Positions 6,442-59,750 of a DNA stretch of 64,000 nucleotides are shown in pieces. The number at the start of each line of letters is the position of its first letter. The stretch's first letter is position 1. The stretch is from positions 6,449 to 70,448 of the IMG/VR virus record IMGVR_UViG_3300042934_000768. One strand, written 5' to 3'. The notes under the pieces were generated by a model that saw nothing but the letters and a program-made list of their open reading frames with translations, ran no database searches and was not told where the DNA came from. Origin of the DNA: a virus. The position numbers and the translations under genes are program-made.

Positions 6442-6518
6442 GGCCTGTTGGTGAAGTTGGTTTGCAACACACCGCCCTTTCACGGCGGCATGCGTGGGTT
6501 CGAGCCCCACACAGGTCA
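6442..6518 (+). tRNA. tRNA-Glu(TTC)
   Basis: CCGCC-CTTTCAC-GGCGG; GGTTCGAGCCC T arm. Confidence 0.92.
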
Positions 6519-7348: not shown

Positions 7349-7377
7349 TTGTTTTCTGACTATGGACATGCTATTAT
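7349..7377 (+). promoter_or_regulatory. parM promoter with extended -10
   Basis: TTGTTT-17 bp-TATTAT preceded by TGn. Confidence 0.55.
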
Positions 7378-7387
7378 TGTGGTACAG

Positions 7388-7415
7388 TGTCGGACAAAGT
7401 TAAAAATGTCCGACA
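7388..7415. repeat. Inverted repeat TGTCGGACA-N10-TGTCCGACA (candidate ParR autoregulatory site)
   Basis: Directly visible between the promoter and parM start; shares the TGTC core with 7095-7148. Confidence 0.55.
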
Positions 7416-7441
7416 AAAACAGATGGGAGATGAACGATTGC

Positions 7442-8647
7442 ATGGCGAAGGCAAAAGAGCAAGTAGTCGAGTCGAAGTTTAAGGTAACCAGTGCAATTCT
7501 TTGCCCGATTGATAACGGGTTCGGGTGGAACAAATACTTATCCAGTATCATGGGAGACTTTGCGTTTCCGAGCATCGTTGCCGAAGGCGGCCATACGACA
7601 AAGACGTTCCGAATCCCTGGCATTGATCGGACGAAGATGGTCGTAACGACAGACGACGGTACATATACAGTGGGTGACTTAGCCCGCAACAAAATGACAG
7701 GTACAATCTCCAATCGGACGGTTGAGCGGGATCGGGCGAACGATCCGGAAAGCAGAACTCTATTCAGAACGAATATCTCCCTGAACACGCCGGACGAAGA
7801 AGGCGAGTACAACGTGATCGTGCAAACGGGTCTGCCCAATGCCGACTATTCCAAGCAGATCAAGGAAAACTTGGAGGAGTTTCTGAAGCAGCCGTTTGAA
7901 ATCAGCTTCGACCTGGGCGGTGGCCGATCCATCTCAAAGAAGATCAAAGTGGAGCGGGTCGAGATCCTACGCCAACCAGAGGGAACGATCGTGCATCGGA
8001 CGATGCGGTTTAATCCGAAATTCAAGGAAGACGGCGAGTTGTTTATCCCAGTCGAAGGCGCAGCACAGTATGTCGGGGTAATCGATGTCGGCCAAGAAAC
8101 ATCGGACTACTGCATCTTTGACGGTGCTTACCTGACGGACGAGGATCGGACCTGCAAATCGGCGATCGCCACGAACGCTGTATACGACAAGCTTCGCACA
8201 AGCCTGGCAAAACGATTTGCGGCAGAAGGCTACAGTAACTTCTCAGCAACCGATACGGATCTGGATATCATCACTCGGACCGGCAGTTTCCGCTATGCAC
8301 AGGAGGATCACGATTGCTCTGCCGAGCTGGCCGAAGCCGTCAAAGAAGTCGCCGAGGTCATCGTCAGCGACGTAGCCCGATCCTGGGGCAATGAGGCTAA
8401 CCGTCTGGAGGAGATCCTGATCACCGGTGGCGGTGCCGAAATCTTCTACGATGCGCTGGTAGAAGCCTTCGAAGCCCGAAAGGTTCGTGGGCTGGTCAAA
8501 GTGGATATGAGCCAGTACAGCAACGTGATGGGCTACTACATCCGGGCCGTCATGTCGATGCTGGACGAAGGATATGATCCGCAGCTGCTGTTTGAAAACT
8601 ACGCAAAACCATACCTTGAGATGATGGGTGAGAACGATGAGGCTTGA
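7442..8647 (+). CDS. parM: ParM/StbA-family actin-like partition ATPase
   Basis: Actin motifs IDNGFGWNK, QPEG, IDVGQETSD and ITGGGA; start uncertain within 7430-7442. Confidence 0.9.
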   Translation: MAKAKEQVVESKFKVTSAILCPIDNGFGWNKYLSSIMGDFAFPSIVAEGGHTTKTFRIPGIDRTKMVVTTDDGTYTVGDLARNKMTGTISNRTVERDRANDPESRTLFRTNISLNTPDEEGEYNVIVQTGLPNADYSKQIKENLEEFLKQPFEISFDLGGGRSISKKIKVERVEILRQPEGTIVHRTMRFNPKFKEDGELFIPVEGAAQYVGVIDVGQETSDYCIFDGAYLTDEDRTCKSAIATNAVYDKLRTSLAKRFAAEGYSNFSATDTDLDIITRTGSFRYAQEDHDCSAELAEAVKEVAEVIVSDVARSWGNEANRLEEILITGGGAEIFYDALVEAFEARKVRGLVKVDMSQYSNVMGYYIRAVMSMLDEGYDPQLLFENYAKPYLEMMGENDEA

Positions 8648-39028: not shown

Positions 39029-39046
39029 TAAATGGGAGGAAAACAG

Positions 39047-39574
39047 ATGAAGGCCAAGGATAAAGTCATTGGGAAACAATTGGACCTGTTTGAAGGCGCA
39101 CAGACAGAAGGGGAAACTGGCACCGGCCAAGCAGCAGGAACAAAGCCGCAGGCGCCTGTCGCACCGCCAAGCGATCCGCAAGCTCCGGGGGACCAAGAAG
39201 AAGTGGAGCGCATCGAGATCGCTTACGGTTACACGCAAGAGGAACTGAACGAAGCCATTTTCCCTGGCGGACCAAGCCGGCTTGAAGTCGAGCAGTGGAA
39301 GGAAAAATACAAAGGTGTGTACTTTACTCCATTTGATGATGAAGTGTTTGTATGGCGCACCCTGGAGCGTCCGGAGTACCGGGAAGTTCTGGCTGATCGA
39401 ACGCTGACGCAGCTGGACCGTGAAGAAATCTACACCGAAAAATGCGTGTTGTTCCCACGCAATTACACGAGGGATAAAATGCGTGATGATAAAGCGGGGA
39501 TCCCAAGCTTGCTGTCTGAGTTTATCATGGATAAATCCGGTTTCGTGGCGCAGAGCGCTCCAATCAAATTGTAA
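39047..39574 (+). CDS. Tail assembly chaperone 1
   Basis: After tube genes; WK.KY..V....F.WR.L.R.EY...VL.P pattern. Confidence 0.7.
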   Translation: MKAKDKVIGKQLDLFEGAQTEGETGTGQAAGTKPQAPVAPPSDPQAPGDQEEVERIEIAYGYTQEELNEAIFPGGPSRLEVEQWKEKYKGVYFTPFDDEVFVWRTLERPEYREVLADRTLTQLDREEIYTEKCVLFPRNYTRDKMRDDKAGIPSLLSEFIMDKSGFVAQSAPIKL

Positions 39575-39633
39575 GATACTACTCAGGCAGGGCATCCGTC
39601 CTGCTTGTTGTCTATGTAAAGAGGTGTATCCAG

Positions 39634-40479
39634 ATGGTGACGGCTCGTCAGATTCAAAAATGGAAGAACAAATATGATGAGGTCTTCAAGGTTCCGATTC
39701 TGGATACCGAGTTCTACTTCCGGCCACTGAGCCGGGAGGAGTACCGGGAGATCGTAACGCAAGAGCTTCCGATCGGGGAGTTCCAGGAAGCTGTGTGCGG
39801 GATTGGTGTCCTATGGCCAGCGGGCTTTGACTTCGCTCACGGCAAGGCCGGTTTCGCAGACACCCTATTCGATATCATTTTGGACGTATCTGGGCTCCAT
39901 GTCGGTCAGGCGCAAGTTATTCTGAACGAGTGCCGGGGAGACATGTTCATCTTCGACAACCTGGTGGACTGCCTCATTCATGAAGCTTTTCCTGAATACA
40001 AAATCGAAGACATCAAGCATTGGACGGTCCGCAAAACAATGTGGCATGCATCACGAGCAGAGTATGTGCTACAGGCGCTGCGGGGCGTGCAGCTTGTTCC
40101 TATCGACCAGCAAGCCCAGCGCATGCTCGAAACGCAGCAGAAGTTTGAGCAACAGCAGCAGCAAGCGGCGCAGCTGTCCCCGCCAAAGCAGCCGAAGATG
40201 TCGCCGCAGGAGCGGGCGATGAACTCGCCGCTTGCACGTCCAGAAGAGCCGCCGGTGCCGATACAGCGGCCGCAGCAACAGCCCGGACAGCCACCGGAGC
40301 GAGTGGAGTTAAGCGAGGAAGAAGCGATGCGCATGCTGCAGCAGGCCATGTCCAGCCACCCGCAAGGCGGCCGTCAGATCGATGTGAGGCGAGAACACAA
40401 TCCGGCCGGTCCTGCAGAGATGTTCCCGGAGCTCAATTGGTTCAGAGCCGAGGAAGAGCTGAAAGGGGAGTACGATTGA
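39634..40479 (+). CDS. Tail assembly chaperone 2 (paralogue with Q/P-rich extension)
   Basis: WKNKY..V.....F.FRPL.R.EY...VLWP pattern. Confidence 0.7.
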   Translation: MVTARQIQKWKNKYDEVFKVPILDTEFYFRPLSREEYREIVTQELPIGEFQEAVCGIGVLWPAGFDFAHGKAGFADTLFDIILDVSGLHVGQAQVILNECRGDMFIFDNLVDCLIHEAFPEYKIEDIKHWTVRKTMWHASRAEYVLQALRGVQLVPIDQQAQRMLETQQKFEQQQQQAAQLSPPKQPKMSPQERAMNSPLARPEEPPVPIQRPQQQPGQPPERVELSEEEAMRMLQQAMSSHPQGGRQIDVRREHNPAGPAEMFPELNWFRAEEELKGEYD

Positions 40480-46609: not shown

Positions 46610-49600
46610 ATGGCATTAAACGATAAAATCAACGGTTTGAATAGCACAGGCATCCCGATGGTGACGCCAGGATCTGAAGAGTGGACTCTGGCCTCCACCT
46701 TTCATTCGCTCCGCAAAGCATCCTACAGTAATGATAACGAACGAGCCAGCCGAGTCGATCAGCAATTAAGCATGATTCAAAACAGCACGCCACTGGATCA
46801 GAAAACACTGAAATCCAATGACAAGGTGATCCTGAAAAACTTCAGCTCGCCGCATCAGATCTTGGGGCAAAAACAAGTCGATGCCATGATGGCCTTCATG
46901 AGAGGGGAGGCCAAGACGTTCTATGCGTTTGACATCGAGACTCTTGGTGACGTCAAAACCGGCGAAGGGTTGCATATCACCGAGATCGCCATGCAGGGCT
47001 TTCAGAAATCGAAGGATGGTTTGTTTAAGGCGGATGCCAATCGGATGTTCAGCGTCTTGATCCGGCCGGACCAGCAAAGCCAGATCTATTTGGAGAACTT
47101 GATTCGGCGGGTACGCAGTGATCGGTTTGCGTTCAATACGATGAGCGACTCCGAACGGATTACGCTCGTCAACCTGATGCGATACTCAACGGAGACCAGT
47201 CTTGGATCCAAAGCGGCCAATCTCAATCCGTCTCAGCTGACGCACAATACCGTCATTCGAACGTTGGAGGATCGCAATGGCCGATACAGCTACGATAAGC
47301 TCGTCATGAATTTTGAGAACTACATCGGGCACATTCAATCCGGCTACAACAACCTGAAGAATCTGGACGAACGAACACACTCAGTGTCCTACTCCATGCA
47401 GCGGTATCGGCAGCAAATCGCCGCCCATCAGAATGCCTTCTTCTTCTCCTATAACGGAGACAACTTCGACTTGGAGGTTCTGGATCGATTCGGGAAGCAG
47501 ACGGGACAAACGGTCATCCGTCCTCAGAATCATATCGACTACTACAGGTTGATTCAGACGGCTTATGCCAACCCACACAGCTTCCACGAGGAGTTTGCCT
47601 CGAAGAACGATTTGAAGAATCGGTATTTCCAGCAAGGCCGCCTGACGATGCACGAGATCCGCAAGACGCTTGGGATCGCCGGGGGCGAGGCGCATGCGGC
47701 GATCGCCGACGTTGACGATCGGGGCCTCGGCGGGGTCGTGTCGATGACCATCGACAAGGTATACAACCGGATCCATACGGCGAAAAACAAAGGCGCCATG
47801 GACACGATGAGCATCAGGCCGGCTTCCTTCACCTGGAACCGCAAAGATGTGCTGAAGGTCGGCGACCAGCTCTTCTCCGCCAGCGGTTATACGGCATTCG
47901 GGGATTCCCTGGACTTCCAAGCCCGCATGGAAAACGGCGAGCTCGTGCCACATGATGTCTCCTGGAACAAGACAGTCCTTAATGCAAAAACGATGTACAC
48001 GGTCAATAACCTGCGGGAGGTCAAAGATTCCTCCGGATCTGTAACCGGTCATGTGTTGGAGCTGCTTGATCAAGACACCGGGCGACTGTCGTTCATTTCC
48101 CGGAGTGGACCGAACTCGATGGATCAGCTCGCCCAGTTCGTGCAGCAACAGCTCCACTCGACGAGAGGCATGAACCGGGAAGAGCTTTACAATATCCAGA
48201 AGATCCGGGAAGAAGATCAGGCCCGCCGCCGCTACGAGCGCATGACGAGCTTGTCGGGGGCGGGCGGGGCGAGCCGATCGGCCGGCTTCCAGGCAGCGCA
48301 GCGTATGTATGGAAATATTGAACATTATCAGAAGCGGCTTTTGGCCAAGAGAAAGAACTGGCCTACTGATCAGCTTGATGCAGAGCTCGCTGATTACCGT
48401 GATCATGCTACCTTTATGAGTAAGATGGATTTCAACAGCCGGCCTGTGTTCGATGCTAACGGCAACATGAACTGGGTATATAATCCAGAGGAAGCGAGCC
48501 TGTTCTTCCGGATGGCGCCTCGCATGTCGAGCGAATATGACCACTACTCGGCAGCCATCAAAGAAATCGAGCGCATGATTCCGCTCGATCCGAAAGAGCG
48601 TAACCGGGAGCAGATCCGCAAGGTCCAGCAGCAGCGGGATATGGCTTGGCGCATCTACAATCAATCGATGGAACGATCCGACATGGCCGGCAATCATACC
48701 ACGTCCCGAATCATGGAGTCGTGGGAGAATCGGGGAATCAACCTCCATGTGGGTGGAGAACAGCGGTTTTTCAGCATGCAGTCCATCCCATCGACGGAGC
48801 GGGCAATCCGGCGCTTCATTTCCCAAGACGATTCAGAGAACCCGAATACGCAGCGGCATCGCTTGGAACAATTCATTGACAGCCTACATGAAAATGCGGT
48901 CGTGGGAGCGGGCAATACACGAAAATTCCGGATGATCAACCAGCAGAGCGGATCGATTCACGACACCATAACGCAAATCGCTATGGATCTGCACAGCCGG
49001 AACATGCCACTGGAGCCACTGGAGACCACCTCACTGGGGCAGCGAGACATGTCCAATGTGACCGCCGATCGGAATCGCACAGCCGTTCAGAAGGCCATTC
49101 AGCGGGCTCTGAGCTACGAAGGGTCTGTGTTCCTGACAGGCGGAAAGGTACAGCTCCATCCAGAAGTGGATAAGTTCTTCGGCGATCTGGAGGGCCATCA
49201 CCTTTCCGGCCTTCAGGCCAACAACCGGAATGCCGTGGAGATGGTGCTGCGATCGCTCGAAGGATCGAACCGCAATCTCATGTTCGACCTGAGCGTGAAC
49301 AACAGCCGCAGCAACCCGATGGCCAAGATCACGGTCATGACGCCGCAGCACAGTACGAGTGTGAGGGAAGCGCTGATGGAAGGGAGGAGCCATCCACGGG
49401 CAGTGGATATTCTGATCCCCCTCATCAACGAGGATGGATACCAAGTGCTGGGTAAGCGGAATCTGATCGCCCATACGGTTGCCGTCATGGATCAAGACAG
49501 CGGCAAGATCGTCCGAAGATCCACAGCTGAAGTAATCGGCATGCAGTATGCACATAACATGAATTTCATCCTATCTGCTTTGGATGAAGGCGATTTCGAT

Positions 49601-52600
49601 GGAGCTTCGTGGCGAAGCAAACATGTACTCGGTGAGGCAGTAAAAAGCATGTCAGGATCTCGTATGGATATTCATAGCTACAACGATGCCTACGAGGCCC
49701 GGGGGCGGATGGCCGACTTCGACAAGATGTCACACGTCAATATGGCTCCGGCTATGATTCATGATCTGTACCGCAAAGGAATCATTGCGAGGGACGATCT
49801 CAAAGACGAGGCATTCTACTATGATCGGGCGGACCGGCAATATAAATTGAGAACACTCGTGGGCATGGACGACCTGAAGCACGGTCATTTTGAGCGGCTG
49901 ATGGATATGCCAGGGTGGGCACAAGGCGCAAACTGGGAAGGTCAAGCTCCGACACTGTATACCTCGGGCGTGAAAGAGGGTGCGGTGCAGAAAGGGACGA
50001 TGAGCACGCAGGATTTGCGGGACTACACGCTCTACGGTCACTACATCAATATGGCCCGGCCAAACTCGATTCAGGCCCGGAACTTCTATGAGTTTTCAGA
50101 TGATGCTGCCTCCCGGGTATCCAGGGTCAATGCGTATACGAATTTCAATGGCATGCTGGACACCGAGAAGAACGCACAATACAAATCCAGATACATGGGC
50201 GGTAACGGCCGGACCGGCGTGAATCTCAAGGTAGCCTACATCACCAATGAGGAGCTGCACAGCCGTATCATGGATATGTACAACAGCGGCGGCGCCGAGA
50301 ATCTTCAGCTGCTCCGTGACGAAGGGATTCTGGTTAAGCGAAATGGACAAGAAGTTATCGACCATCGCCGCCTACCGACCGTGTACGAGCAGCAAGCCGT
50401 CATCGCCAAAGAGCTGATGGACGCCATGAAGTATACGGACTCCCAAAGCTTCGATAAGGGCACGGGCACCTTCCAGTGGCACGAGCGGTTCGCCAAGAAC
50501 GGTGCGGCTGGCGCCAATAGCGGCTTTATCGTTGGCGGTGAGGCGATCAATGGCGCAACCGTCAATCCCGGTGACGTGATCGGCCGCCGCTATGTCGATG
50601 GCAACTGGGAAGAGATCCGTTACGAGAAGCACTATACAGGGCGACTCACCGGGGTGGAGAATCAGGTTTTCAATGTGGAGTGGGACGACAAGCCATTCAA
50701 GATCTCGTTTGCCGGCGAGAAGGGAACGGATGCCGCAACGCCAAGTCTGAAGCTTATTGGGGCGCTAACTGGGGATACCGAGATCAGTGCCATGATCAGC
50801 CCGAACCCGGCCAAGCGGAAAGACTTCGGCATGATGATGGAGGGCTACGCCAAGATCATTATCAACGAGCTGATGAAAAAAGATCAACCGACTCGGGAGA
50901 GACTGATTCGACAGTTGGATCTGGCCAGCATCGGTTTGCAGTACAATAACGGTCAATTCATGGATGTCAGCGGGCGGATGCCAAACGGCATTGACATCAA
51001 GGATTTCAATCGAATCGCACAGCACCGAGAGCTCGGCATCAACTTTCAAACGAGCACAGGACTCAGTACGGGAATCTTGGAAGCCCGGATGATGCGTAGC
51101 CCGCAGTACTACAAATCTGTGGATGCCAATGGCAAAGCTGTAATTGGATACGACCCGGAAGGCAAGAAGATCTATGCCAGTGGTCTGGACGGATCCTCGA
51201 TCGGTCACCGGGAGATGAAAGTGCTGCGCCGAATGGGAGCTGACCAGACGTATGAACTCGCTTTTGAGACCATGCGTGAACAGGCGACGAAAACCGGCAG
51301 ATGGCAGGACGCCCAGAACCTATCGCACTCAATCATGGGATTTGTCGATCCGGATGCTCCGGAGATGGCGGCCTACAAAAACCGGATTCTCCAGGCCCAT
51401 CAATTCGAATCCATGCCAGAGCTTGGGTTAGATATGAACACGGTCAAGGGCACCATTTTGGATCGAGATACAGTGGCGAGGCACCTCGGGATCGACGGCA
51501 AGGAAGCTGGCCACGGGTTCTGGCTCCAGTTGCCGGAAGAAGTGGCAGTGAATGTCCATGGCGGCAGCGATCGAACGAAAGTAAATAAGATCTTCGTGCC
51601 GTTCACACATTTAGCAAGGGAAGGGTCGAATGACAAAATTCATCTGCAGAAGCTGCAACGGCAGATTGCCCAAATCAACGAGAGCATTAAATCGTATAGC
51701 CGGGCGAAGACGCAGAATGGCCGAGGTAAGGACAGTGCTGAGTATCACATGCAGCGACTGCAAGGGCATGTCACGAACTATGTGAACCAATTGTCAAAAG
51801 ATACACTCAGCTCGAAAGGAATGACCGGAGAGAGCGTCCTCAAGGCGCACATGCCGTCTTCCGCATCCGGCATTCTCAAGATCATCGGGCCGGAGTCGGC
51901 CGCTGCGATCGGCGATGAGATGACCTTTGTCTCCGTGCAGCAAGCGAAGGACATGGGCATCTATGAACATGTGATTGGCAAGCAGCATATCGGCACATCG
52001 AGGGAGAGCGAGATTCTGCAAGATTGGAGCCGGCAGCAGAACAAAAATGTGATGACGATCCGCTATCCGACCAAGCATAACTCGGCCGTCCAGTTCACCC
52101 GTGTGGCGATCGATCCTAACCTGAAGATCGGGAACATTCTGACGACAGCCTTCACGGCTGAGCGGCTCGAAGGGGATGCAGACGGCGACCAATTGCACAT
52201 GATCTACGTGGATGACGACAACATTCAGAAGGAATGGGCGCATTTGAAAGGGCAGCGGCAAGCCGAGTTCCAAGGTGGCCACGACAACTGGTCGGATTTC
52301 TTGAAGAGCCGAATTGCCGAAGAGGCGACCGGTGCGCAGCGGAATTACAATCTGGAGTCCTTGATCGAAGGGTACAACAAAGACCTGAATAATCAAGATG
52401 GCACCCGGATCCGGCAGATGGTGCCGAACTCCGAAGCGGAGATCGCCGGCAAGATCGGAAAGACGCAAATTGGCGGGATCTCCAACCTGAACTTGGCCAT
52501 TCAGGATTTCGCCGAGGAGATGTATGGTTCCTATAGCCAGGAATACAAGACGCTCGAAAACTTCGGTAGTATGCTGGAGCAAAAAGGGATCGACACGAAG

Positions 52601-53488
52601 CAGGGTGTTGCGCTTACGCATGATCGAAGGTCGCCAGTGGGTCAATTCCGTCAAGCCTTTTACAGTGGGGATTGGAAATCGATTCGACAGATCGATCGGG
52701 ATTACTACGGTAGCTATTGGTCTGAGAATCATAATCTGGATGATGTCATTGATCTGCTCTCCCGGCCACAGTCCATTAACGGTGGGCTGGATAATGCCAG
52801 CTACAAACCGGGCACCAGCTCCGGTATCGATGTCAATAAATACGGATTAAAGCGCACGTATGACACGATCTTCGGCAAGCTTAGCGAGGGCGATCAGGTA
52901 AACGCCAACGAGTACACTCGATTGTTTGGTCGCATGCAGCAAGAATCGGTAGCAGGCGCAACCCCGCCACCGCAGCAGCCGAGAATGACCGGCAGGTACC
53001 AACAGTCCTCGTGGAGATCGAGCTACACGCCGCCGCTGCAGTCGAGGCCAGCGCCTCAAGGAGCGATCCCGGATACGCTTCATGATCTCTCCGGCGGATG
53101 GATTCCGAACGATATTTTCAGCGGCATAAACGGAGCCCGCAACAAGAAAATTGCTTTGTTCGGCAGTCTAGCTTTAGGTGGTGTAATGGGTTACAATGTT
53201 CTTAGTAATACCACTGCACCGGTTTCGGCGCCCACGCCACCACCACCCGTGCCCCCTCAAATTCCCATTCAATCACCGCTGCCGCCGATCCCTGGTGAAC
53301 CGTCCGGAGCGAATGTCTTGATCTCAGGTCGGGGGCAGGCAGTAGGAGAAAACCTATCGACGCTTGTCCAAGAAGGACTGAGCCGAAGCGGGTGGCAAGG
53401 GTCGGCCAATATGACGGTTAATCACTCCGATAATACAAACCGGCTGACAAGATTGTGGTACCGGGATAAAGTCGAGGAACACATGTAA
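46610..53488 (+). CDS. Putative single-chain two-barrel RNA polymerase with N-terminal DEDDh exonuclease (2292 aa)
   Basis: DIE/YNGDNFD/HAAIAD exonuclease motifs; beta-like YEQQAVI, KISFAGEKG, ISPNPAKR and GSSIGHREM; beta'-like RYPTKH and EGDADGDQL. Confidence 0.8.
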   Translation: MALNDKINGLNSTGIPMVTPGSEEWTLASTFHSLRKASYSNDNERASRVDQQLSMIQNSTPLDQKTLKSNDKVILKNFSSPHQILGQKQVDAMMAFMRGEAKTFYAFDIETLGDVKTGEGLHITEIAMQGFQKSKDGLFKADANRMFSVLIRPDQQSQIYLENLIRRVRSDRFAFNTMSDSERITLVNLMRYSTETSLGSKAANLNPSQLTHNTVIRTLEDRNGRYSYDKLVMNFENYIGHIQSGYNNLKNLDERTHSVSYSMQRYRQQIAAHQNAFFFSYNGDNFDLEVLDRFGKQTGQTVIRPQNHIDYYRLIQTAYANPHSFHEEFASKNDLKNRYFQQGRLTMHEIRKTLGIAGGEAHAAIADVDDRGLGGVVSMTIDKVYNRIHTAKNKGAMDTMSIRPASFTWNRKDVLKVGDQLFSASGYTAFGDSLDFQARMENGELVPHDVSWNKTVLNAKTMYTVNNLREVKDSSGSVTGHVLELLDQDTGRLSFISRSGPNSMDQLAQFVQQQLHSTRGMNREELYNIQKIREEDQARRRYERMTSLSGAGGASRSAGFQAAQRMYGNIEHYQKRLLAKRKNWPTDQLDAELADYRDHATFMSKMDFNSRPVFDANGNMNWVYNPEEASLFFRMAPRMSSEYDHYSAAIKEIERMIPLDPKERNREQIRKVQQQRDMAWRIYNQSMERSDMAGNHTTSRIMESWENRGINLHVGGEQRFFSMQSIPSTERAIRRFISQDDSENPNTQRHRLEQFIDSLHENAVVGAGNTRKFRMINQQSGSIHDTITQIAMDLHSRNMPLEPLETTSLGQRDMSNVTADRNRTAVQKAIQRALSYEGSVFLTGGKVQLHPEVDKFFGDLEGHHLSGLQANNRNAVEMVLRSLEGSNRNLMFDLSVNNSRSNPMAKITVMTPQHSTSVREALMEGRSHPRAVDILIPLINEDGYQVLGKRNLIAHTVAVMDQDSGKIVRRSTAEVIGMQYAHNMNFILSALDEGDFDGASWRSKHVLGEAVKSMSGSRMDIHSYNDAYEARGRMADFDKMSHVNMAPAMIHDLYRKGIIARDDLKDEAFYYDRADRQYKLRTLVGMDDLKHGHFERLMDMPGWAQGANWEGQAPTLYTSGVKEGAVQKGTMSTQDLRDYTLYGHYINMARPNSIQARNFYEFSDDAASRVSRVNAYTNFNGMLDTEKNAQYKSRYMGGNGRTGVNLKVAYITNEELHSRIMDMYNSGGAENLQLLRDEGILVKRNGQEVIDHRRLPTVYEQQAVIAKELMDAMKYTDSQSFDKGTGTFQWHERFAKNGAAGANSGFIVGGEAINGATVNPGDVIGRRYVDGNWEEIRYEKHYTGRLTGVENQVFNVEWDDKPFKISFAGEKGTDAATPSLKLIGALTGDTEISAMISPNPAKRKDFGMMMEGYAKIIINELMKKDQPTRERLIRQLDLASIGLQYNNGQFMDVSGRMPNGIDIKDFNRIAQHRELGINFQTSTGLSTGILEARMMRSPQYYKSVDANGKAVIGYDPEGKKIYASGLDGSSIGHREMKVLRRMGADQTYELAFETMREQATKTGRWQDAQNLSHSIMGFVDPDAPEMAAYKNRILQAHQFESMPELGLDMNTVKGTILDRDTVARHLGIDGKEAGHGFWLQLPEEVAVNVHGGSDRTKVNKIFVPFTHLAREGSNDKIHLQKLQRQIAQINESIKSYSRAKTQNGRGKDSAEYHMQRLQGHVTNYVNQLSKDTLSSKGMTGESVLKAHMPSSASGILKIIGPESAAAIGDEMTFVSVQQAKDMGIYEHVIGKQHIGTSRESEILQDWSRQQNKNVMTIRYPTKHNSAVQFTRVAIDPNLKIGNILTTAFTAERLEGDADGDQLHMIYVDDDNIQKEWAHLKGQRQAEFQGGHDNWSDFLKSRIAEEATGAQRNYNLESLIEGYNKDLNNQDGTRIRQMVPNSEAEIAGKIGKTQIGGISNLNLAIQDFAEEMYGSYSQEYKTLENFGSMLEQKGIDTKQGVALTHDRRSPVGQFRQAFYSGDWKSIRQIDRDYYGSYWSENHNLDDVIDLLSRPQSINGGLDNASYKPGTSSGIDVNKYGLKRTYDTIFGKLSEGDQVNANEYTRLFGRMQQESVAGATPPPQQPRMTGRYQQSSWRSSYTPPLQSRPAPQGAIPDTLHDLSGGWIPNDIFSGINGARNKKIALFGSLALGGVMGYNVLSNTTAPVSAPTPPPPVPPQIPIQSPLPPIPGEPSGANVLISGRGQAVGENLSTLVQEGLSRSGWQGSANMTVNHSDNTNRLTRLWYRDKVEEHM

Positions 53489-53501: not shown

Positions 53502-56500
53502 ATGGCCACAACAGGCATTGATGATCGGGACTCTCTTTATGGGAGTCTCCGACCCCATCATTTACGCATCGGCGATACACAGTTCTTTGTTCCGCCGACG
53601 GCGATTACCGTCACCAAACGGATGAAAAACCAAACGGTCAACATGCTTCGAAGCAAGGGGAGCTTCATTAAGGGCAGCGGATTCTTTGATATGGTGATCG
53701 ACATGTCATTGTTTTTCCCGGACCGTGAATCGATCAACAACGAGCTGCGGCCACTTCTGGCACAAGTCAAGAAGTGTCCGTTTCTTCCTGTTGAGAACCT
53801 TCATCTCAACGACGTGTACGACATTCAGGCTGTTACGGTTGCCGGGCTTACAGTGTCTACGACGCCAGGATTTCCGCATTCACTGACAGCAAATTTTCAA
53901 TTTTACGCCTTTAATCCTTTCGTTTACATCTTCAATGAGAACGACAAAGAGTACAAAGAGTTGTTCAATTGGCCGCTGTTTCGCTGGTACTATCAGCGCA
54001 ATCTGCAACCAAGCGACGGGCGTTACACTTATTTCGAGCCGATGCGGGATGAGCTGACGGAATACTTTAAGTTCAAAACGACGTTCGAGGGCGACCTGCT
54101 CAAGATCCGTGAATGGCGCTTGGAGCGGGATCAGATGATCAAGCGGTGGGTTTCGGATAAGGCGAACAAGAAGTACATTGACCAGGAGGACTTCGACTTC
54201 ACCACATCAGCCTTTGATGAGATCGATGAGCGGATCTTCAACAGCACCCTGGACGAGCATTACAAGAAGGCCGTTTATGAGCATGACATTCAGATGGAGG
54301 ATTGGATCTTCGACGATCTGTACCTGCAGAATCTGAGCATCAGCTACCAGAACGTCATCACCTCACAGCAGATTCAGGGCCATGAAACGCCAACCCACCA
54401 ATATCTTGGATCAGCTGACACAATCATCGTGTGCAAATTCCAAACCGATGACGCCGAGACGCTGGCCAATTTTGAAGGCATGATCCGCCGCTCCAACTAC
54501 TTGGTGCGGGAATACCACAAGGAACTGTCCAATGGCTTCTTGGAGTTCGATCACCCGCTCGCTCGATTATTTGGCGTGCATTACGTAGTTGTTCAAGATG
54601 TACAGTCTTCTACCGTCGAGCGGCAGCCCGGCGTTTTCGATATTACACTGACGCTGATTGCTTACAACCGGGCCCAGAAAAAGCTGGCTGAGACAAAGTT
54701 GCTGAACGGTGAGGCGGATCCGGCGAGCTACGGTGGCTGGAAGAACTCACATGCGAAGCTGCTGTTGCCGGTCTTCGGGTGGGCCTCCTGGCTTGCCGAC
54801 CGACCGCTATTCAAAAGGGCGGGATCGGAGATTTGGAACAGTCTCATAGGCAAGGACATGCCGTATATGGATCTGGATCTGGAGAAAAAGGTGATCTTTG
54901 AAAATAAGGTGAAGCAAGGTTTCGCTGCCATTGAAATCTATCCGGATCTGGAGCTACCGACTTATACGGAAGTCGCAGAGGCAGGATTCCAAATCATTAA
55001 CAACAATAACGGATTCTACGTGGAGCCCGACTTCTTCTTGATCTATGATGATGTCTCCACGGTGAAAGACTTGAAGGGTATTCTGAACTCTTCCTTCAAG
55101 GCGGAAGCGAGAGACACCATTGGCGGGGGAGCGACGATCCAAGACAACGAGTATAAGTTGAATGAGTGGACGGCCGAATACACGCAGAAGCAGAAGACGC
55201 TGAAGACCGAGGCACTGCAGCCAAACATCAAGCAGGAGCCGCCGGCAGACGGACAGGATGGAAATATTGCGCCAGAGCAGATGGAATCTTTGATCCGTCA
55301 AAAAGCACAGAATCCTATCGACAACAAGCAGAATCCGACTGGGATGAAAGATAACCTGCTGCCGCAAGCATGGGTTGTCGCCTTCGCCAAGTCCTTTGAT
55401 GAGCAGCTTCGGCAGTTCTATTCGACTGGATATGAGACGAATCATAATCTGGGGAACGTTGTAGTGAACGAAGCAAACGTGCCGATCATGCAGACCGAGG
55501 ATATGCGGTTCTTCTCGGATAGGGACTTTATCCGGGAAGCGGCTCATATCGGCGTCATGCGGGCAAGCCGGGTCATGGGCGATCCGGAATCATTGGGGCG
55601 AAACTACGAGTTCAACATCGAGCAGGGGATTGCTCATCTCCAGTATTACTACGACCGGGTGAAAAAGTCGAACAATATCAGCCAGTACGTCTATGATGCG
55701 TTCGGCTTAAATGCGGACCTGGCGGCTGATATGAAGAAGTGCTATTTCGCAGCCGCTGTGTGCTTGTACCTTGGATTCGAGATCGAGTACAACCGGCTGC
55801 AGAAGTCGAATAAAAAGCTCAACTACGGGCTGATTCTGCAAGTGAAAAAGGTCCTGCAGCTGATTGACCAGACCAAGGATTGGGATACGGCCACGATCGA
55901 GAAGAAGGTCGCCGAACTTCCTGTCAAGGATTACAAGACAGCAAGCCTGAACAACGCTGCACCATTTGCCAAGCAAGATCCAGTGCTGGAGGAGTCGGCG
56001 TTCGAGGATCCGAATTTGACGCTGCAGATGATGTTCCATGACGTGGAGAAGTATGATCGCCGGGGACGCCTGGTTCGTGCCTTTCCAGCCTTCTTCATGA
56101 TGTTCATCGACGAGGGACAGTATATGGGCACGATCAAGCTGTCCGATAAGTATTTCGGATACCAGGCCGTGACGGATATCACCTACACCAACAGCCGCAG
56201 GATGGCGTCAAGCACGCTGGCGCTAGAGATGAGCAACGTAGCAGGAACGCTCTCGGACGGCGTGAAAGCGATGGATCTGACGCATCACGGCGCATGGGAT
56301 TTGATTCAGTCCTTGATTGCTCCGGGGTTTGCGGCCATGCAAGCCGAGCGGAGCCGAAACCGGGATTCCAATTGGTACAAGTCAATCATGCTGCGCACTG
56401 GCGCCCGGGTACACTTCCGGATGGGATATGGCTCCAACCCCATGAGTATGCCGACGTTAATGAACGGGACGATCACTCAGCTGGAGAACAATGGTGAGAC

Positions 56501-59500
56501 CGTATCGGTCATCGTCCAAGACGATGGGATCGAGCTGACCAACAAGATCAAGGCACACCCGGATGAAACGACAAGCGGGTTTATCTTCAGCAAGAAAGAG
56601 CCGACGGAAATTGTGGATGCACTGCTGCGGGATGACCAAGGGTTCCTCGGAAACCTAAAGCAGGCCATCAGTAATGCGGAGTACCTCAAACATTCGCTTG
56701 GTATCATACACTTTGGAGCTCCGGGTCGGCCAGCGGCGGCGATCGGTGGTGAACTGGGTGGCCGAGTTATGAATGAGATCAACATGAACATCTACGAGAC
56801 CGGCGGCAATTTGAATACGGAGAAAGGATTCTGGGGCAGGCTCGGTGACTTCTTCGGGGTAAGCAGCTTCGACGAACCAGGGATCAACATTAATCTGTAC
56901 GATAAGACGGTCTGGGATGTGCTGAACATCTGCGCTTCTGTGGGCGAAGACCATGTGGTCGCCGTGCATCCGTTCGATTTTCGGAGTACGATCTTCAGCG
57001 GGAAGCCTTACCATCCGATTGCCTTCGGGTATGCCGTTGACGGAAAAGACAACATCTCCTTGTACCGCAAGCCGTTCCGGCAGTTCCACATCTTCGACAG
57101 TGCGACCAACATCATCGACAACAACATCATGGCCACGGAGAACAACATGTATAACGTGGCTATCGGAACGTACTACAACGAAGGGAAGCTGGATACGACC
57201 GAAGCCATTTACGTGGACACGAACATCTGGCCGGAGAAGCTCCGAACGGTCAACATCGACACAACGCTGAACGCCCAAGGGATCCGGCTCGTGGAGAGCA
57301 TTCCGCTTGTAGGAGGATTGCTGAACAAGCCGTTCAAATGGTACTTCGACGAAGCCGTGGCGATCCGCATTGCAGCGGCGGGTCTAAAGGATCATGTGAA
57401 GAACATGTACGACGGCTACTTGACGGTGGTGGGAGATCCGGCAGTAAAGCCGTTCGACCAGCTGCTCATTAATGACACGCTGATCAACATGACCGGTCCA
57501 GCTGAAGTGCGAGAAGTCACCCAGATGATGAACCTGGAATATGGATTCATCACTATGATTAAACCGGATGCCGTCGTCGTAAACTCCGACCATACCCAGA
57601 TGAATTTCATGCAAACGTCGTATCAAGTGGCGGCTGCAGTTTCTGTAACGCACGTCATGCGCAGCATACTCGCCAATAAGGGATACCAGGGAGCCTTCCC
57701 GATTATGAATGCGGCCTGGGCGCTCATCAAGCGTCAGTTCAAGAAGATGACGCAAACGTTCAGAATCGATAAAGGGATTGAGAAATTGAAAGAAATGCTG
57801 GCGGTTAACACCAAGCCGACACCAGGATCTAACATCTGGGAGTATGACGAAGTGACAGGGAAGTGGAGAGAGTACAATCCGCTATCCGAAGAAACGAGAA
57901 GGAAATGGAAATTGAGCGGGCTAATGGATGAAATGATCAAGACTTTGGATAGCCTTGAGATGTCACAGGTCGAAGACCTCTTTGACCGAGCCGACGATGC
58001 TTTGAACAATCGCCAGTTCATGGGTTATCATAAGATTGATATAGCTAAAATAGCCAAGATGCGCTCGATCAGCTCCAAGCTCGCATTCCGTGGCGGGAAG
58101 CTCGCCGGAAAAGCCTTGAAGGGTGGACGCTGGGGAGTGCGAGGAGCTGTGGCAGCAACAGGCGTCGGCCTCATCCCCATACTCATTGAAACGTTTGTCA
58201 CGGAAATCTTGCTCGCTGGAGCTGCCGAGTATTTGGAGCGATTCCTGTTTACACGGCAAGCTTGTATTATCGCTCCACTCAAGAAAGACGGATACGAGTT
58301 CTCAGCCGGGATCAACGGCCACAAGGGCTCTGTCTTTACGGATTCCCCCGACTTGGTTCAACGAATCTTCACGGGTCCATTGCAATCCTTTTTCTTCGGG
58401 GTGCTGGGGGCGGATGTCGGGAAGTACGCAGCGCAGCCTGCTGTCGATGATGCTTTCGATATCCCAAGAGCGCAAGGCATGCGAGCGATGGCGGAGGAAG
58501 ACGACGAGCTTCCGTATGATCCTAATGTGATCGTGGCCAATTTTGTTGCAGCTCATCGGAAGGTGATTCCTTACGATGAATTATATAAGGCGCAATACGA
58601 GAAAGAGATTCTTGAAGTCCAGCAAGAATACCAGAAGCGTGTGGAGAAGCTGGATCAGGAAAATACCAGAGAGGCGGTCTATACGCTGGAAGAAACGTCG
58701 CCGGGAACTGCCACCGGAGGCAGCGGCTACACGAGAATTGACTTGAATATCCCGAGCGGGATATCGGCCGAAGCCATCAACAAGGCGTTTGAGGGTACGG
58801 GGCTCGCAGGTCTGGGTCAAACGTTCGCCAACCTGGAAAAATCCATCCCGCCAGTAAAGCATCCGAAAACGGGTGAAACGGGCAGCGTGAGCGGCGTCAT
58901 CAGTGCCCTGTATTTTGCGGCACATGCTGCGCTGGAGACAGGATGGGGCGACTCAGACATCTTCCGAGATAAGAACAATCTGTTCGGATATGGAGCGTAT
59001 GACTCCAGTCCTTACGAGTCGGCTTGGACCTTCGACAGCAAGCAGCATTGCATTAACTTTGCTGCGCAGCAGATCAAGAAAAGCTATCTGACCGAAGGCG
59101 GTGCCTACTACAACGGACCAACCCTGACCGGCATGAATGTAAAGTATGCTTCCGATAAGAAGTGGGCCGACAAGATTGCCAGTATCATGCGGAAGATTGC
59201 CAAGCTCGATCCGAACTACAAGGAGCCGGCCAGCCTGTCCACGAACGGAAAGGTCGAAGTGATCGGATCCGAAGGCAAGGTCAAGTACAGGATGAATGCG
59301 GATGAGGCCAGCAAGGTGCTGATCGACCTCAAGAAGCAGAAACTGGAGAGCATCAGGCTCACTTTGGTTTCTGCATCAAGCCTCATTCGCCAGTCTGCCT
59401 ACGATGCGCTGGAAGAGCTCGGTGCTTTGTACCTGAAGCGCACAGGAGAGAAGATTGCGATCACGAGCGCCTACCGGCCGGGAGATCCAGACTGGCACGG

Positions 59501-59750
59501 TACCGGGTTCGGTTGCGATATCGACACACCGAATGCAAAGATCATTTCAGGGGCTTACCGGCTACCGAAAGGAAGCAAGGAGAAACAAAATCTGGAGATC
59601 TTAATGGAGTTGGCGGTTCAAGTCGGGTGGGGCGGCATTATACACGGGGATGTGGATCTCATCGCCAAGATGAAAACGAAGTTCCCGGATTCCGGATTCA
59701 CGCAGATGAATGACCATTATAACCACCTTCATTTATCTTACTTGAGGTGA
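53502..59750 (+). CDS. Baseplate hub / tail lysin (2082 aa) with GH73 glucosaminidase and M15-like peptidase
   Basis: Hub motif RVHFRMGYGSN...NG.I; AHAALETGWG..NNLFG..YASD..W (GH73); ITSAYR...WH..G..CDID...HLH (M15). Confidence 0.85.
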   Translation: MATTGIDDRDSLYGSLRPHHLRIGDTQFFVPPTAITVTKRMKNQTVNMLRSKGSFIKGSGFFDMVIDMSLFFPDRESINNELRPLLAQVKKCPFLPVENLHLNDVYDIQAVTVAGLTVSTTPGFPHSLTANFQFYAFNPFVYIFNENDKEYKELFNWPLFRWYYQRNLQPSDGRYTYFEPMRDELTEYFKFKTTFEGDLLKIREWRLERDQMIKRWVSDKANKKYIDQEDFDFTTSAFDEIDERIFNSTLDEHYKKAVYEHDIQMEDWIFDDLYLQNLSISYQNVITSQQIQGHETPTHQYLGSADTIIVCKFQTDDAETLANFEGMIRRSNYLVREYHKELSNGFLEFDHPLARLFGVHYVVVQDVQSSTVERQPGVFDITLTLIAYNRAQKKLAETKLLNGEADPASYGGWKNSHAKLLLPVFGWASWLADRPLFKRAGSEIWNSLIGKDMPYMDLDLEKKVIFENKVKQGFAAIEIYPDLELPTYTEVAEAGFQIINNNNGFYVEPDFFLIYDDVSTVKDLKGILNSSFKAEARDTIGGGATIQDNEYKLNEWTAEYTQKQKTLKTEALQPNIKQEPPADGQDGNIAPEQMESLIRQKAQNPIDNKQNPTGMKDNLLPQAWVVAFAKSFDEQLRQFYSTGYETNHNLGNVVVNEANVPIMQTEDMRFFSDRDFIREAAHIGVMRASRVMGDPESLGRNYEFNIEQGIAHLQYYYDRVKKSNNISQYVYDAFGLNADLAADMKKCYFAAAVCLYLGFEIEYNRLQKSNKKLNYGLILQVKKVLQLIDQTKDWDTATIEKKVAELPVKDYKTASLNNAAPFAKQDPVLEESAFEDPNLTLQMMFHDVEKYDRRGRLVRAFPAFFMMFIDEGQYMGTIKLSDKYFGYQAVTDITYTNSRRMASSTLALEMSNVAGTLSDGVKAMDLTHHGAWDLIQSLIAPGFAAMQAERSRNRDSNWYKSIMLRTGARVHFRMGYGSNPMSMPTLMNGTITQLENNGETVSVIVQDDGIELTNKIKAHPDETTSGFIFSKKEPTEIVDALLRDDQGFLGNLKQAISNAEYLKHSLGIIHFGAPGRPAAAIGGELGGRVMNEINMNIYETGGNLNTEKGFWGRLGDFFGVSSFDEPGININLYDKTVWDVLNICASVGEDHVVAVHPFDFRSTIFSGKPYHPIAFGYAVDGKDNISLYRKPFRQFHIFDSATNIIDNNIMATENNMYNVAIGTYYNEGKLDTTEAIYVDTNIWPEKLRTVNIDTTLNAQGIRLVESIPLVGGLLNKPFKWYFDEAVAIRIAAAGLKDHVKNMYDGYLTVVGDPAVKPFDQLLINDTLINMTGPAEVREVTQMMNLEYGFITMIKPDAVVVNSDHTQMNFMQTSYQVAAAVSVTHVMRSILANKGYQGAFPIMNAAWALIKRQFKKMTQTFRIDKGIEKLKEMLAVNTKPTPGSNIWEYDEVTGKWREYNPLSEETRRKWKLSGLMDEMIKTLDSLEMSQVEDLFDRADDALNNRQFMGYHKIDIAKIAKMRSISSKLAFRGGKLAGKALKGGRWGVRGAVAATGVGLIPILIETFVTEILLAGAAEYLERFLFTRQACIIAPLKKDGYEFSAGINGHKGSVFTDSPDLVQRIFTGPLQSFFFGVLGADVGKYAAQPAVDDAFDIPRAQGMRAMAEEDDELPYDPNVIVANFVAAHRKVIPYDELYKAQYEKEILEVQQEYQKRVEKLDQENTREAVYTLEETSPGTATGGSGYTRIDLNIPSGISAEAINKAFEGTGLAGLGQTFANLEKSIPPVKHPKTGETGSVSGVISALYFAAHAALETGWGDSDIFRDKNNLFGYGAYDSSPYESAWTFDSKQHCINFAAQQIKKSYLTEGGAYYNGPTLTGMNVKYASDKKWADKIASIMRKIAKLDPNYKEPASLSTNGKVEVIGSEGKVKYRMNADEASKVLIDLKKQKLESIRLTLVSASSLIRQSAYDALEELGALYLKRTGEKIAITSAYRPGDPDWHGTGFGCDIDTPNAKIISGAYRLPKGSKEKQNLEILMELAVQVGWGGIIHGDVDLIAKMKTKFPDSGFTQMNDHYNHLHLSYLR

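Follow-up and report, generated by a model that had tools for sequence, protein, structure and literature searches.

In the tail module of a large temperate phage, a single gene encodes a protein of 2,292 amino acids (aa) that is very likely both an RNA polymerase and an exonuclease, with enzymatic activities predicted from structural models. The gene lies in a stretch of 64,000 nucleotides (nt), hereafter the window, which covers positions 6,449 to 70,448 of the IMG/VR virus record IMGVR_UViG_3300042934_000768 (a contig of 70,448 bases, estimated to be 36% complete) and which, from PHROG matches and gene order, is the virion half of the phage genome; the element is a large, temperate phage-plasmid of the Paenibacillus type. 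The fuller reading proposed here, to which a probability of about 0.6 is given, is that of a virion-carried, injected, single-chain two-barrel DNA-dependent RNA polymerase with an N-terminal DEDDh exonuclease, which would transcribe the first phage genes. That a single-chain two-barrel polymerase is fused to a DEDDh exonuclease had been proposed in a first-pass annotation made from the sequence alone, and is supported by the predicted folds, by a match of the family profile to PDB sequences and by invariant catalytic residues. The parts of the protein, in window coordinates, are listed below, with conservation given as counts among 37 aligned family members.

46610..53488, plus strand: whole gene (P0001), 2,292 aa, with exonuclease, middle region, beta-like module, beta′-like module, hydrophobic segment and C-terminal tail
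46904..47779, plus strand: DEDDh (DnaQ-like) 3′-5′ exonuclease domain, aa ~99-390, catalytic D108, E110, D287, H362 and D367
47780..49195, plus strand: middle region, aa ~391-862, mixed beta/helical and confidently folded (predicted local distance difference test, pLDDT, mostly 77-96)
49196..51298, plus strand: beta-subunit-like module, aa ~863-1563, first double-psi barrel with invariant lysines
50699..50722, plus strand: lysine pair K1364...K1371 (K-x6-K), 37/37, with T1373 and K1402 downstream
51344..52759, plus strand: beta′-subunit-like module, aa ~1579-2050, second double-psi barrel
52061..52189, plus strand: catalytic loop R1818-Y-P-x-x-H ... D1856-x-D1858-G-D1860, 37/37 for R1818, P1820, D1856, D1858, G1859 and D1860
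53144..53206, plus strand: hydrophobic Gly/Ala-rich segment, aa ~2179-2199, read from the sequence, with a Pro-rich linker after it
53300..53488, plus strand: conserved C-terminal tail, aa ~2231-2292, terminal motif N-x-x-x-D-N-T...W-Y-R-D-K-V

An AlphaFold2 model of the polymerase core (aa 1100-2050), built from the 37-row alignment (pLDDT 89.4; predicted template modelling score, pTM, 0.87), was compared by VIA-align with 48,161 chains, 26 of which were matched at Z ≥ 8. The two double-psi beta-barrels that the first-pass annotation had expected from such a model and a structure search are present, one of the beta and one of the beta′ type, as membership in the superfamily of two-barrel RNA polymerases entails. 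In particular, the beta-like half (model residues 3-464, aa ~1102-1563) superposes on beta subunits with Z 13.3-15.6 (non-virion RNA polymerase, nvRNAP, of phage phiKZ, 7ogp_C, 15.6; beta of the plastid-encoded polymerase, PEP, 15.1; Pol I A135, 15.1; phage AR9, 7s00_C, 14.8; bacterial beta, 6j9e_C, 14.5), and the beta′-like half (model residues 480-951, aa ~1579-2050) on beta′/Rpb1 with Z 8.7-10.2 (Pol I A190, 7ob9_A, 10.2; Pol II Rpb1, 9.8; M. tuberculosis beta′, 9.0). Isolated double-psi barrel domains (designed ones and that of VCP) match aa ~1750-1870 (model ~650-780) with Z 6.6-7.2. In the model of the N-terminal part, aa 863-1148 match residues 26-711, the N-terminal part of bacterial beta, with Z 8.8, and the beta-like module therefore begins near aa 860. 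Single-chain enzymes spanning both barrels were matched as well: QDE-1 with Z 11.8, P74 gp62 with 9.7, P23-45 gp96 with 8.4, RDR2 with 8.3 and the crAss-like gp66 with 6.4. Judged from the model, the core is a single chain of cellular type, beta module first and beta′ module second, and it is nearer in structure to multisubunit beta and beta′ than to the known single-chain phage enzymes with which it was compared, gp66 included. Foldseek, run with the same model against the PDB, gave at least 500 matches at E ≤ 1e-3, and among the matches listed all are chains of multisubunit RNA polymerases.

At the level of sequence, the motifs that the first-pass annotation had picked out are all found in the translation where it had placed them, namely YEQQ at aa 1259, K-ISFAGE-K at 1364-1371, P1398..K1402..DFG, GHRE at 1532-1535, S1735/G1737, RYPTKH at 1818 and DADGD at 1856-1860 (nt 52175-52189). 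From motif and fold together, K1364 and K1371 would be the equivalents of the two catalytic lysines of beta, and the DxDxD triad (D1856, D1858 and D1860, kept in 37/37) falls in the beta′-type barrel. The parallels then drawn with RpoB and RpoC motifs have held on the beta′ side, where hhalign pairs the catalytic loop with residues 418-483 of E. coli beta′ (RAPTLH, NADFDGDQM; E 0.0093); the RpoB pairing did not reach significance and is returned to below. The family profile, searched against PDB sequences, matches at the same loop (RYPTFH..ADSDGD) the largest subunit of Pol V (RPPTTH..ADFDGD; E 7e-5), phiKZ gp55 (0.0035) and AR9 beta′ (0.19), as well as the African swine fever virus (ASFV) and Pol II Rpb1 sequences.

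A word-indexed search with aa 1100-2050 found five proteins, the query included, among 5,941 candidates, one of them a 60%-identical homologue on a plasmid of Paenibacillus rhizovicinus, and phmmer, run exhaustively over 1.84 billion representatives, brought up 41 proteins at E ≤ 1e-3, 29 of them at E ≤ 1e-30 and nearly all 2,100-2,730 aa long. The alignment holds the query and 36 homologues (33 of the 41 phmmer matches, plus P0002, P0003 and P0005 from the word-indexed search); seven rows were left out, namely six fragments of 115-209 aa (P0033-36, P0039, P0044) and the 870-aa P0043. Mean column identity is 20%, and K1364, K1371, T1373, K1402, E1535, R1818, P1820, D1856, D1858, G1859 and D1860 are each invariant (37/37), so that the loss of DxDGD among homologues, which the first-pass annotation had named as grounds for giving up the polymerase, is not what is seen. 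D108, E110, N282, D287, H362 and D367 of the exonuclease are each conserved in 36/37, the exception being P0029 (1,873 aa), with a shorter N-terminus. The conservation of these motifs is beyond chance and, given the low mean identity, the alignment indicates that the catalytic residues of both enzymes are under purifying selection.

The exonuclease was recognized in an AlphaFold2 model of aa 1-1150 (pLDDT 86.2, pTM 0.75). An RNase H-like fold carries the D-x-E of motif Exo I, the D of Exo II and the H-x4-D of Exo III that characterize DEDDh exonucleases, read in the translation as FDIET (D108/E110), NGDNFD (D287) and HAAIAD (H362/D367), with a helical insertion of ~110 aa between motifs I and II. 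With VIA-align, aa 99-390 match Pol III epsilon (1j53_A; Z 14.5, root-mean-square deviation, rmsd, 2.5, 166 aligned), 3′hExo (14.0) and the DinG exonuclease (13.3), with TREX1, RNase T and polymerase editing domains among the further matches, and the family profile matches the exonuclease domain of a family-B polymerase in the PDB (E 1.3e-5). Foldseek gave no PDB match at E ≤ 1e-3 for the N-terminal model, RNase T coming closest (1.3e-3). The VIA-align matches are a mix of DNA- and RNA-specific nucleases, and the substrate might be RNA (in proofreading or trimming), the entering DNA ends (resected to give a single-stranded template or for circularization of the plasmid form) or host nucleic acids. 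Thus, the domain has the fold and all five catalytic residues of DnaQ/Pol III epsilon, TREX and RNase T, and differs from them in the helical insertion and in its fusion to a two-barrel polymerase.

Proofreading DNA polymerases classically combine a polymerase with a DEDDh 3′-5′ exonuclease, and the resemblance of the exonuclease to Pol III epsilon, PolC and family-B editing domains, along with the alignment of QDE-1 over both barrels, brings up a two-barrel DNA polymerase with proofreading exonuclease (a PolD-like logic) or an RNA-dependent polymerase like QDE-1. Such an enzyme is, however, improbable: the closest folds, flanking lobes included, are the beta and beta′ subunits of transcribing enzymes (Z up to 15.6), no PolD chain appears among the best 50 VIA-align rows (a weak negative), and the gene sits in the virion module, while the replication genes of the relatives (dnaN, primase-like) lie elsewhere. 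Furthermore, R-x-P-x-x-H, and the Asn that precedes A-D-x-D-G-D in the two Bacillus plasmid members inspected, mirror residues that contact the ribose in beta′.

The remaining parts of the chain are less easily named. For the middle region (aa ~391-862) no match was found among the best 50 VIA-align rows, and an Atlas search with aa 395-865 gave no usable one. Past aa 2050, ~240 aa extend beyond the core as a low-complexity stretch, the hydrophobic segment, the Pro-rich linker and the conserved tail. In the hydrophobic segment, a putative membrane-active helix, K2179, L2187-L2189, G2191 and G2194-N2196 are invariant.

The gene is the middle one of three giant genes in succession (1,985, 2,292 and 2,082 aa), its ATG lying 11 nt past the stop of the 1,985-aa open reading frame, with AGGA ~8 nt 5′ of the ATG. 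Promoter- and terminator-like sites at 39-59 kb, which spans the three giants, are not above shuffle expectation (17 versus 13.9+/-3.6 and 16 versus 18.9+/-5.0), and the giants therefore look co-transcribed with the tail genes. The neighbouring features of the tail module are the following.

39032..40479, plus strand (39032-39574 and 39634-40479): two tail-chaperonin homologues, BLASTP to gp143 (3e-31) and gp144 (8e-12) of Bacillus phage 0305phi8-36
40641..46598, plus strand: 1,985-aa giant, homologue of 0305phi8-36 gp145 (BLASTP 4e-114 and 3e-59)
53502..59750, plus strand: 2,082-aa baseplate hub with C-terminal glucosaminidase (PF01832 1.2e-14; phrog_20474 1214 bits; BLASTP to gp147 2.5e-58)

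The module is collinear with that of 0305phi8-36, with sheath (922 aa here, phrog_16991, encoded before the giants), chaperonin homologues, gp145 homologue, the 2,292-aa gene and hub in this order, and the gene order is strict across at least five elements. The 2,292-aa gene fills the position of gp146, between the gp145 homologue and the hub. The first-pass annotation had set it between a tape-measure-like gene and the baseplate hub; the hub is indeed downstream, but the gene upstream is the homologue of gp145, a protein to which the name of tape measure was not given. In the 0305phi8-36 record both gp146 and gp145 are virion proteins by mass spectrometry, and it is gp146, not gp145, that is annotated as 'hypothetical tape measure protein', a name given mainly because of a correlation with tail length, in a source that also confines conservation among positional homologues to the last ~60 residues (PMC2147016). 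When a hidden Markov model (HMM) was built from the final 130 aa of all 37 family members, residues 2404-2529 of gp146 scored 31.4 bits (E 7.4e-11) and gp034 of Bacillus phage vB_BauM_KLEB27-3 scored 58.5 bits; with the same HMM, gp145 and the 1,985-aa protein score at most 2.6 bits and the hub has no reported match. Thus, a C-terminal part of ~126 aa, with the hydrophobic segment and the terminal motif, is common to the 2,292-aa protein and gp146, and only this profile brought the two together, BLASTP of the full protein against gp146 giving nothing significant. With hhalign (probability 100, E 1.7e-80, 2,009 columns), KLEB27-3 gp034 (2,434 aa), which is annotated as 'structural protein', aligns as a full-length homologue; it carries R-Y-P-T...A-D-Y-D-G-D.

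The neighbouring 1,985-aa gp145 homologue has hydrophobic segments close to both ends, and its C-terminus, I-N-M-N-Y-Q-D-D, bears a faint likeness to the terminal motif of the 2,292-aa protein (0.2 bits, not significant). The gp145-type gene is split in KLEB27-3 into gp031 and gp033, and an Atlas search with the 1,985-aa protein gave no usable match.

Position, C-terminal homology to gp146 and the label of KLEB27-3 gp034 make delivery of the 2,292-aa protein in the virion likely, and packaging is also suggested because a polymerase whose only source is a late tail operon would be of little use if it were not packaged. The protein would be synthesized late, together with the tail, and placed in or at the tail lumen by its C-terminal tail and hydrophobic segment; on infection it would be ejected through the tube with or ahead of the DNA, necessarily unfolded, and refold in the cell, where it would transcribe pre-early phage genes without the host RNA polymerase. 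The grounds for packaging are indirect, which leaves some room for a non-packaged, late-expressed phage RNA polymerase that is encoded in the tail operon by happenstance. There is a precedent in YonO of SPbeta, a non-virion single-chain polymerase for late genes. Yet an enzyme cannot transcribe the operon from which it is first made, the conserved C-terminal tail is common to gp146, a protein seen in virions, the synteny is strict and, as described below, the genome already has a separate YonO-type enzyme, all of which makes happenstance very unlikely.

If the virion-carried enzyme is accepted, exonuclease and polymerase could act on the same molecule at entry, a rather unlikely extension. On this view the injected protein would cut back the 3′ strand at the end of the linear genome as it enters, or shorten nascent RNA from its 3′ end. 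It would then be either a pilot enzyme of a promoter-independent, 'resect-and-transcribe' kind, linking pre-early transcription to DNA entry, or the first RNA polymerase of the two-barrel type to have a proofreading nuclease of its own, a DNA-phage analogue of the nidovirus pairing of polymerase and ExoN.

The pre-early genes plausibly include that of a second candidate two-barrel polymerase, P0046, which lies in the same record ~1.7 kb past the left edge of the window.

G000:C1:1078-4767, minus strand: P0046, second two-barrel polymerase candidate, 1,258 aa, ADNDGD motif

The P. rhizovicinus plasmid encodes a 'hypothetical protein' of 1,227 aa that is 78% identical to P0046 and carries G-R-N-P-M...G-G-A-D-N-D-G-D. 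Among 17 homologues, P0046 included, seven have a precomputed PF05183 (RdRP/YonO-type, where RdRP is RNA-dependent RNA polymerase) label, that is, 7/15 outside the source record and P. rhizovicinus, and one of the labelled proteins is the 'RNA dependent RNA polymerase' of Alicyclobacillus shizuokensis; because of these labels and the ADNDGD motif, P0046 is assigned as a candidate YonO/RdRP-type two-barrel polymerase, and it probably serves as a non-virion counterpart to the tail-module enzyme. Direct searches contributed little to this assignment: neither a profile of P0046 relatives nor the single sequence matched a polymerase among PDB sequences, and a PF05183 search of the P. rhizovicinus plasmid gave no match and is uninformative, the controls being likewise silent. 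P0046 matches plasmids of B. licheniformis (2e-105) and B. thuringiensis (259 kb, 2.6e-151) that both carry the intact giant, so that intact giant and YonO-type enzyme occur together in at least four elements (the source record, P. rhizovicinus, B. licheniformis and B. thuringiensis), with two further elements probable from contigs of equal length. As a single sequence it found no match in KLEB27-3, 0305phi8-36 or pG9842_140, nor any by tblastn against phages; a 17-row P0046 profile does match a 1,246-aa frame of 0305phi8-36 (E 1.2e-5), and finds nothing in pG9842_140, which represents the only lineage with a dead giant that was examined.

Upstream of the P0046 gene, a non-coding leader of ~350-400 nt (L009:4790-5215, minus strand) is conserved between the source record and the P. 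rhizovicinus plasmid, with 76% overall identity, long near-identical blocks, a 60-nt indel and an RNA fold z of -2.65 versus shuffles; no Rfam family matches it, and its role could be that of a structured leader or of a regulatory region. The plasmids of B. licheniformis (L016) and B. thuringiensis (L017) have in common an AT-rich block, T5-CTATACATTT...CCGTTTC, which lies ~150-230 nt 5′ of the P0046-type gene in each, could be a promoter or operator and is absent upstream of the Paenibacillus-type P0046 genes, and no k-mer of at least 9 is common to three of the four elements upstream of these genes. In the 6.3 kb upstream of the window, Rfam gives sub-threshold matches only, such as Hammerhead_II at L009:5917-5989 (minus strand; 26.1 bits versus a gathering threshold of 37, E 0.048), which is probably a chance match.

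Homologues of the giant were found by tblastn on ten plasmid records of 140-260 kb, eight of which cover at least 80% of the protein; the hosts are Bacillus licheniformis (three), B. paralicheniformis, B. halotolerans, B. thuringiensis (two), B. cereus G9842 and two Paenibacillus. A further homologue lies on a 198-kb Alicyclobacillus contig. One plasmid carries a degenerate version.

L010:8719-14052: degenerate homologue in Bacillus cereus G9842 plasmid pG9842_140, 1,777 aa

It retains the N-terminal and middle regions, part of the beta′-like region and the C-terminal tail. The block with the beta barrel, profile positions 1042-1593, is missing, as is DxDGD; HYHHTL is read where others have RYPTFH, and Exo I has lost its first Asp and Exo III its His. 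Most of the 1,985-aa gene is absent from this element as well, and no giant other than the degenerate homologue stands between the hub and the chaperone-like genes. The persistence of this dead homologue points to a catalysis-independent role of the scaffold, and the retained, catalysis-free scaffold argues for an additional, structural role in the virion.

It is from here that the most serious of the alternatives draws its strength, namely that the protein is primarily a structural or pilot protein of the tail lumen, in the tape-measure slot, whose enzyme domains serve genome entry or establishment and not gene expression, for instance in the transcription-driven pulling of ~200-kb DNA, in end resection for circularization of the plasmid or in making primers for first-round replication. 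The slot and C-terminus of gp146, the dead version standing as the only giant in that position with its scaffold kept without the enzymes, the phage-plasmid nature of the element (a ParM-type gene, phrog_691, and homologues on plasmids) and the near-complete retention of the exonuclease residues all fit such a role. The slot between tail chaperones and hub is that of a tape measure, with the gp145 homologue intervening as in 0305phi8-36; the AlphaFold2 models, however, show compact globular domains over aa 1-2050, most of the length, unlike a classical tape measure, which is an extended ruler of helices, and a fold closest to transcribing beta and beta′, together with the co-occurring second polymerase, fits a transcription cascade. 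A primarily structural function is possible, if unlikely, and overlaps the virion-carried polymerase more than it excludes it. That the protein is a catalytically inert polymerase relic kept as tail mass is the least credible of the proposals, since the polymerase catalytic residues are intact throughout the alignment, the protein of the window included, and the exonuclease set in all members but one, although pG9842_140 shows that such decay occurs in the family.

Several observations weigh against the virion-delivered polymerase. Packaging and activity rest, in this phage, on sequence, models and gene position. Foldseek TM-scores (template modelling scores) for the core are low (0.12-0.25), because its alignments cover only part of the chain or superpose poorly (rmsd up to ~50 Å); for G-H-R-E and the GQRFGEME of E. 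coli RpoB, the hhalign pairing is not significant (E 0.27); and no Pfam, PHROG or single-sequence phmmer-versus-PDB match identifies a polymerase, the PDB matches being at chance level, PHROGs having no family for the protein and Pfam giving only a sub-threshold RNase_H_2 (E 0.047). As for packaging, gp146, the sole slot-mate seen in virions, lacks a DxDxD motif and resembles the protein detectably at the C-terminus only, and the virion location therefore transfers solely via the C-terminal tail; the 'structural protein' label of KLEB27-3 gp034 has no traceable basis, no publication on KLEB27-3 having been found; and a folded protein of ~250 kDa does not fit the tail tube unless unfolded. Finally, the pG9842_140 gene persists in spite of the loss of its beta barrel and of either enzyme's catalytic motifs, and KLEB27-3 has an intact giant and no P0046-type polymerase detected with the 17-row profile, so that a cascade of two polymerases would not be universal.

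The window also encodes terminase, portal, protease/scaffold and major head protein (PHROG matches). A ParM-type partition protein (window 7349-8647, plus strand; phrog_691, 1.3e-47) adjoins the terminase module and is consistent with maintenance as a plasmid-prophage.

One of the known systems that the protein resembles most is in Thermus phage P23-45. Its gp96 (PDB 8H2M/8H2N) is a single-chain two-barrel enzyme with DxDGD that forms part of a giant protein of the tail module, encoded at the place of the tape measure; it is matched here over both barrels (rmsd 3.7-4.0, 283-286 aligned), and a further two-barrel polymerase, not carried in the virion, is encoded in that genome as well. According to the available text of the published work, gp96 is a tape-measure-fused virion polymerase that transcribes pre-early genes, the non-virion polymerase gene gp64 included; the phage is a siphovirus, and the polymerase is N-terminal, 'flat' and without clamp, and is followed by ~3,800 aa of tape measure (PMC10770324). 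The 2,292-aa protein, in contrast, is encoded along with a contractile tail, has the polymerase in the centre with a DEDDh exonuclease fused to it and only ~240 aa after the core, and is nearer in fold to multisubunit beta and beta′ (Z 13-15.6). The gp66 of crAss-like phi14:2 (PDB 6VR4) is likewise a giant (~2,200 aa), virion-packaged, single-chain two-barrel polymerase encoded among tail genes, with both barrels aligned over 424 residues, the weakest of the single-chain matches; it differs in coming from a podovirus of Bacteroidota, in having no exonuclease and in sequence. Indeed, no sequence similarity to gp96 or gp66 was found by phmmer against the PDB at E ≤ 10 or among the best 60 of 82 profile matches, and the protein may be likened to the two in function, by analogy, while it stands outside their sequence families. 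The functional class of packaged and injected phage RNA polymerases to which gp96 and gp66 belong also holds the N4 vRNAP and the phiKZ/AR9 vRNAPs.

The enzymes of phiKZ and AR9, the latter a jumbo phage of Bacillus, provide the closest folds for the beta-like half, and their beta′ catalytic loops are matched by the family profile; as far as the available texts go, they consist of 4-5 polypeptides and are packaged in the head (PMC7598289, PMC13282480), whereas here one chain is found in a tail-module protein. YonO of SPbeta and the RdRP-like polymerase of 0305phi8-36 (PF05183) are single-chain two-barrel enzymes of Bacillales phages; the 2,292-aa protein has no PF05183 match at E ≤ 0.1, and the PF05183-type enzyme of its genome is P0046. 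In the available part of a 2021 survey of jumbo phages, the RdRP-like (YonO-like) polymerase is the only one listed for 0305phi8-36, with none in the tail module (PMC7824862); gp146 of that phage differs from the protein described here in lacking DxDxD and the exonuclease motifs, with no similarity detected outside the C-terminal ~126 aa. The available text of a 2026 review mentions no single-chain virion polymerase for jumbo phages (PMC13282480). No published description of the family was found, full-text searches giving only the work on P23-45, whose supplementary list of 23 polymerase families (PMC10770324) lay outside the search, and no description of a fusion between a two-barrel polymerase and a DEDDh exonuclease was found in the literature searches.

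In BFVD, the 'minor tail protein' of an uncultured siphovirus (A0A8S5SD80_1) matches the whole core (E 6.7e-25, TM 0.59 over 1,012 columns), and an unnamed viral protein (A0A7R7G2L5_2; E 8.1e-18) and a protein of Acinetobacter phage ME3 (A0A172Q021_2) match the 951-aa polymerase core, the three entries spanning E 6.7e-25 to 1.8e-10. Tail-embedded single-chain polymerases may, as judged from models, be more widespread.

To our knowledge, experimental demonstrations of virion-delivered two-barrel RNA polymerases are limited to one crAss-like podovirus, one Thermus siphovirus and the phiKZ/AR9 jumbo phages, where the enzymes are multisubunit. The family described here would add a contractile-tailed, temperate phage-plasmid lineage in cultivable Bacillus, Paenibacillus and Alicyclobacillus, and its homologues on plasmids of cultured strains make the predictions directly testable. 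A single-chain enzyme nearer to cellular beta and beta′ bears on the relation of these subunits to their fused forms, and the natural degenerate versions separate a structural from a catalytic role.

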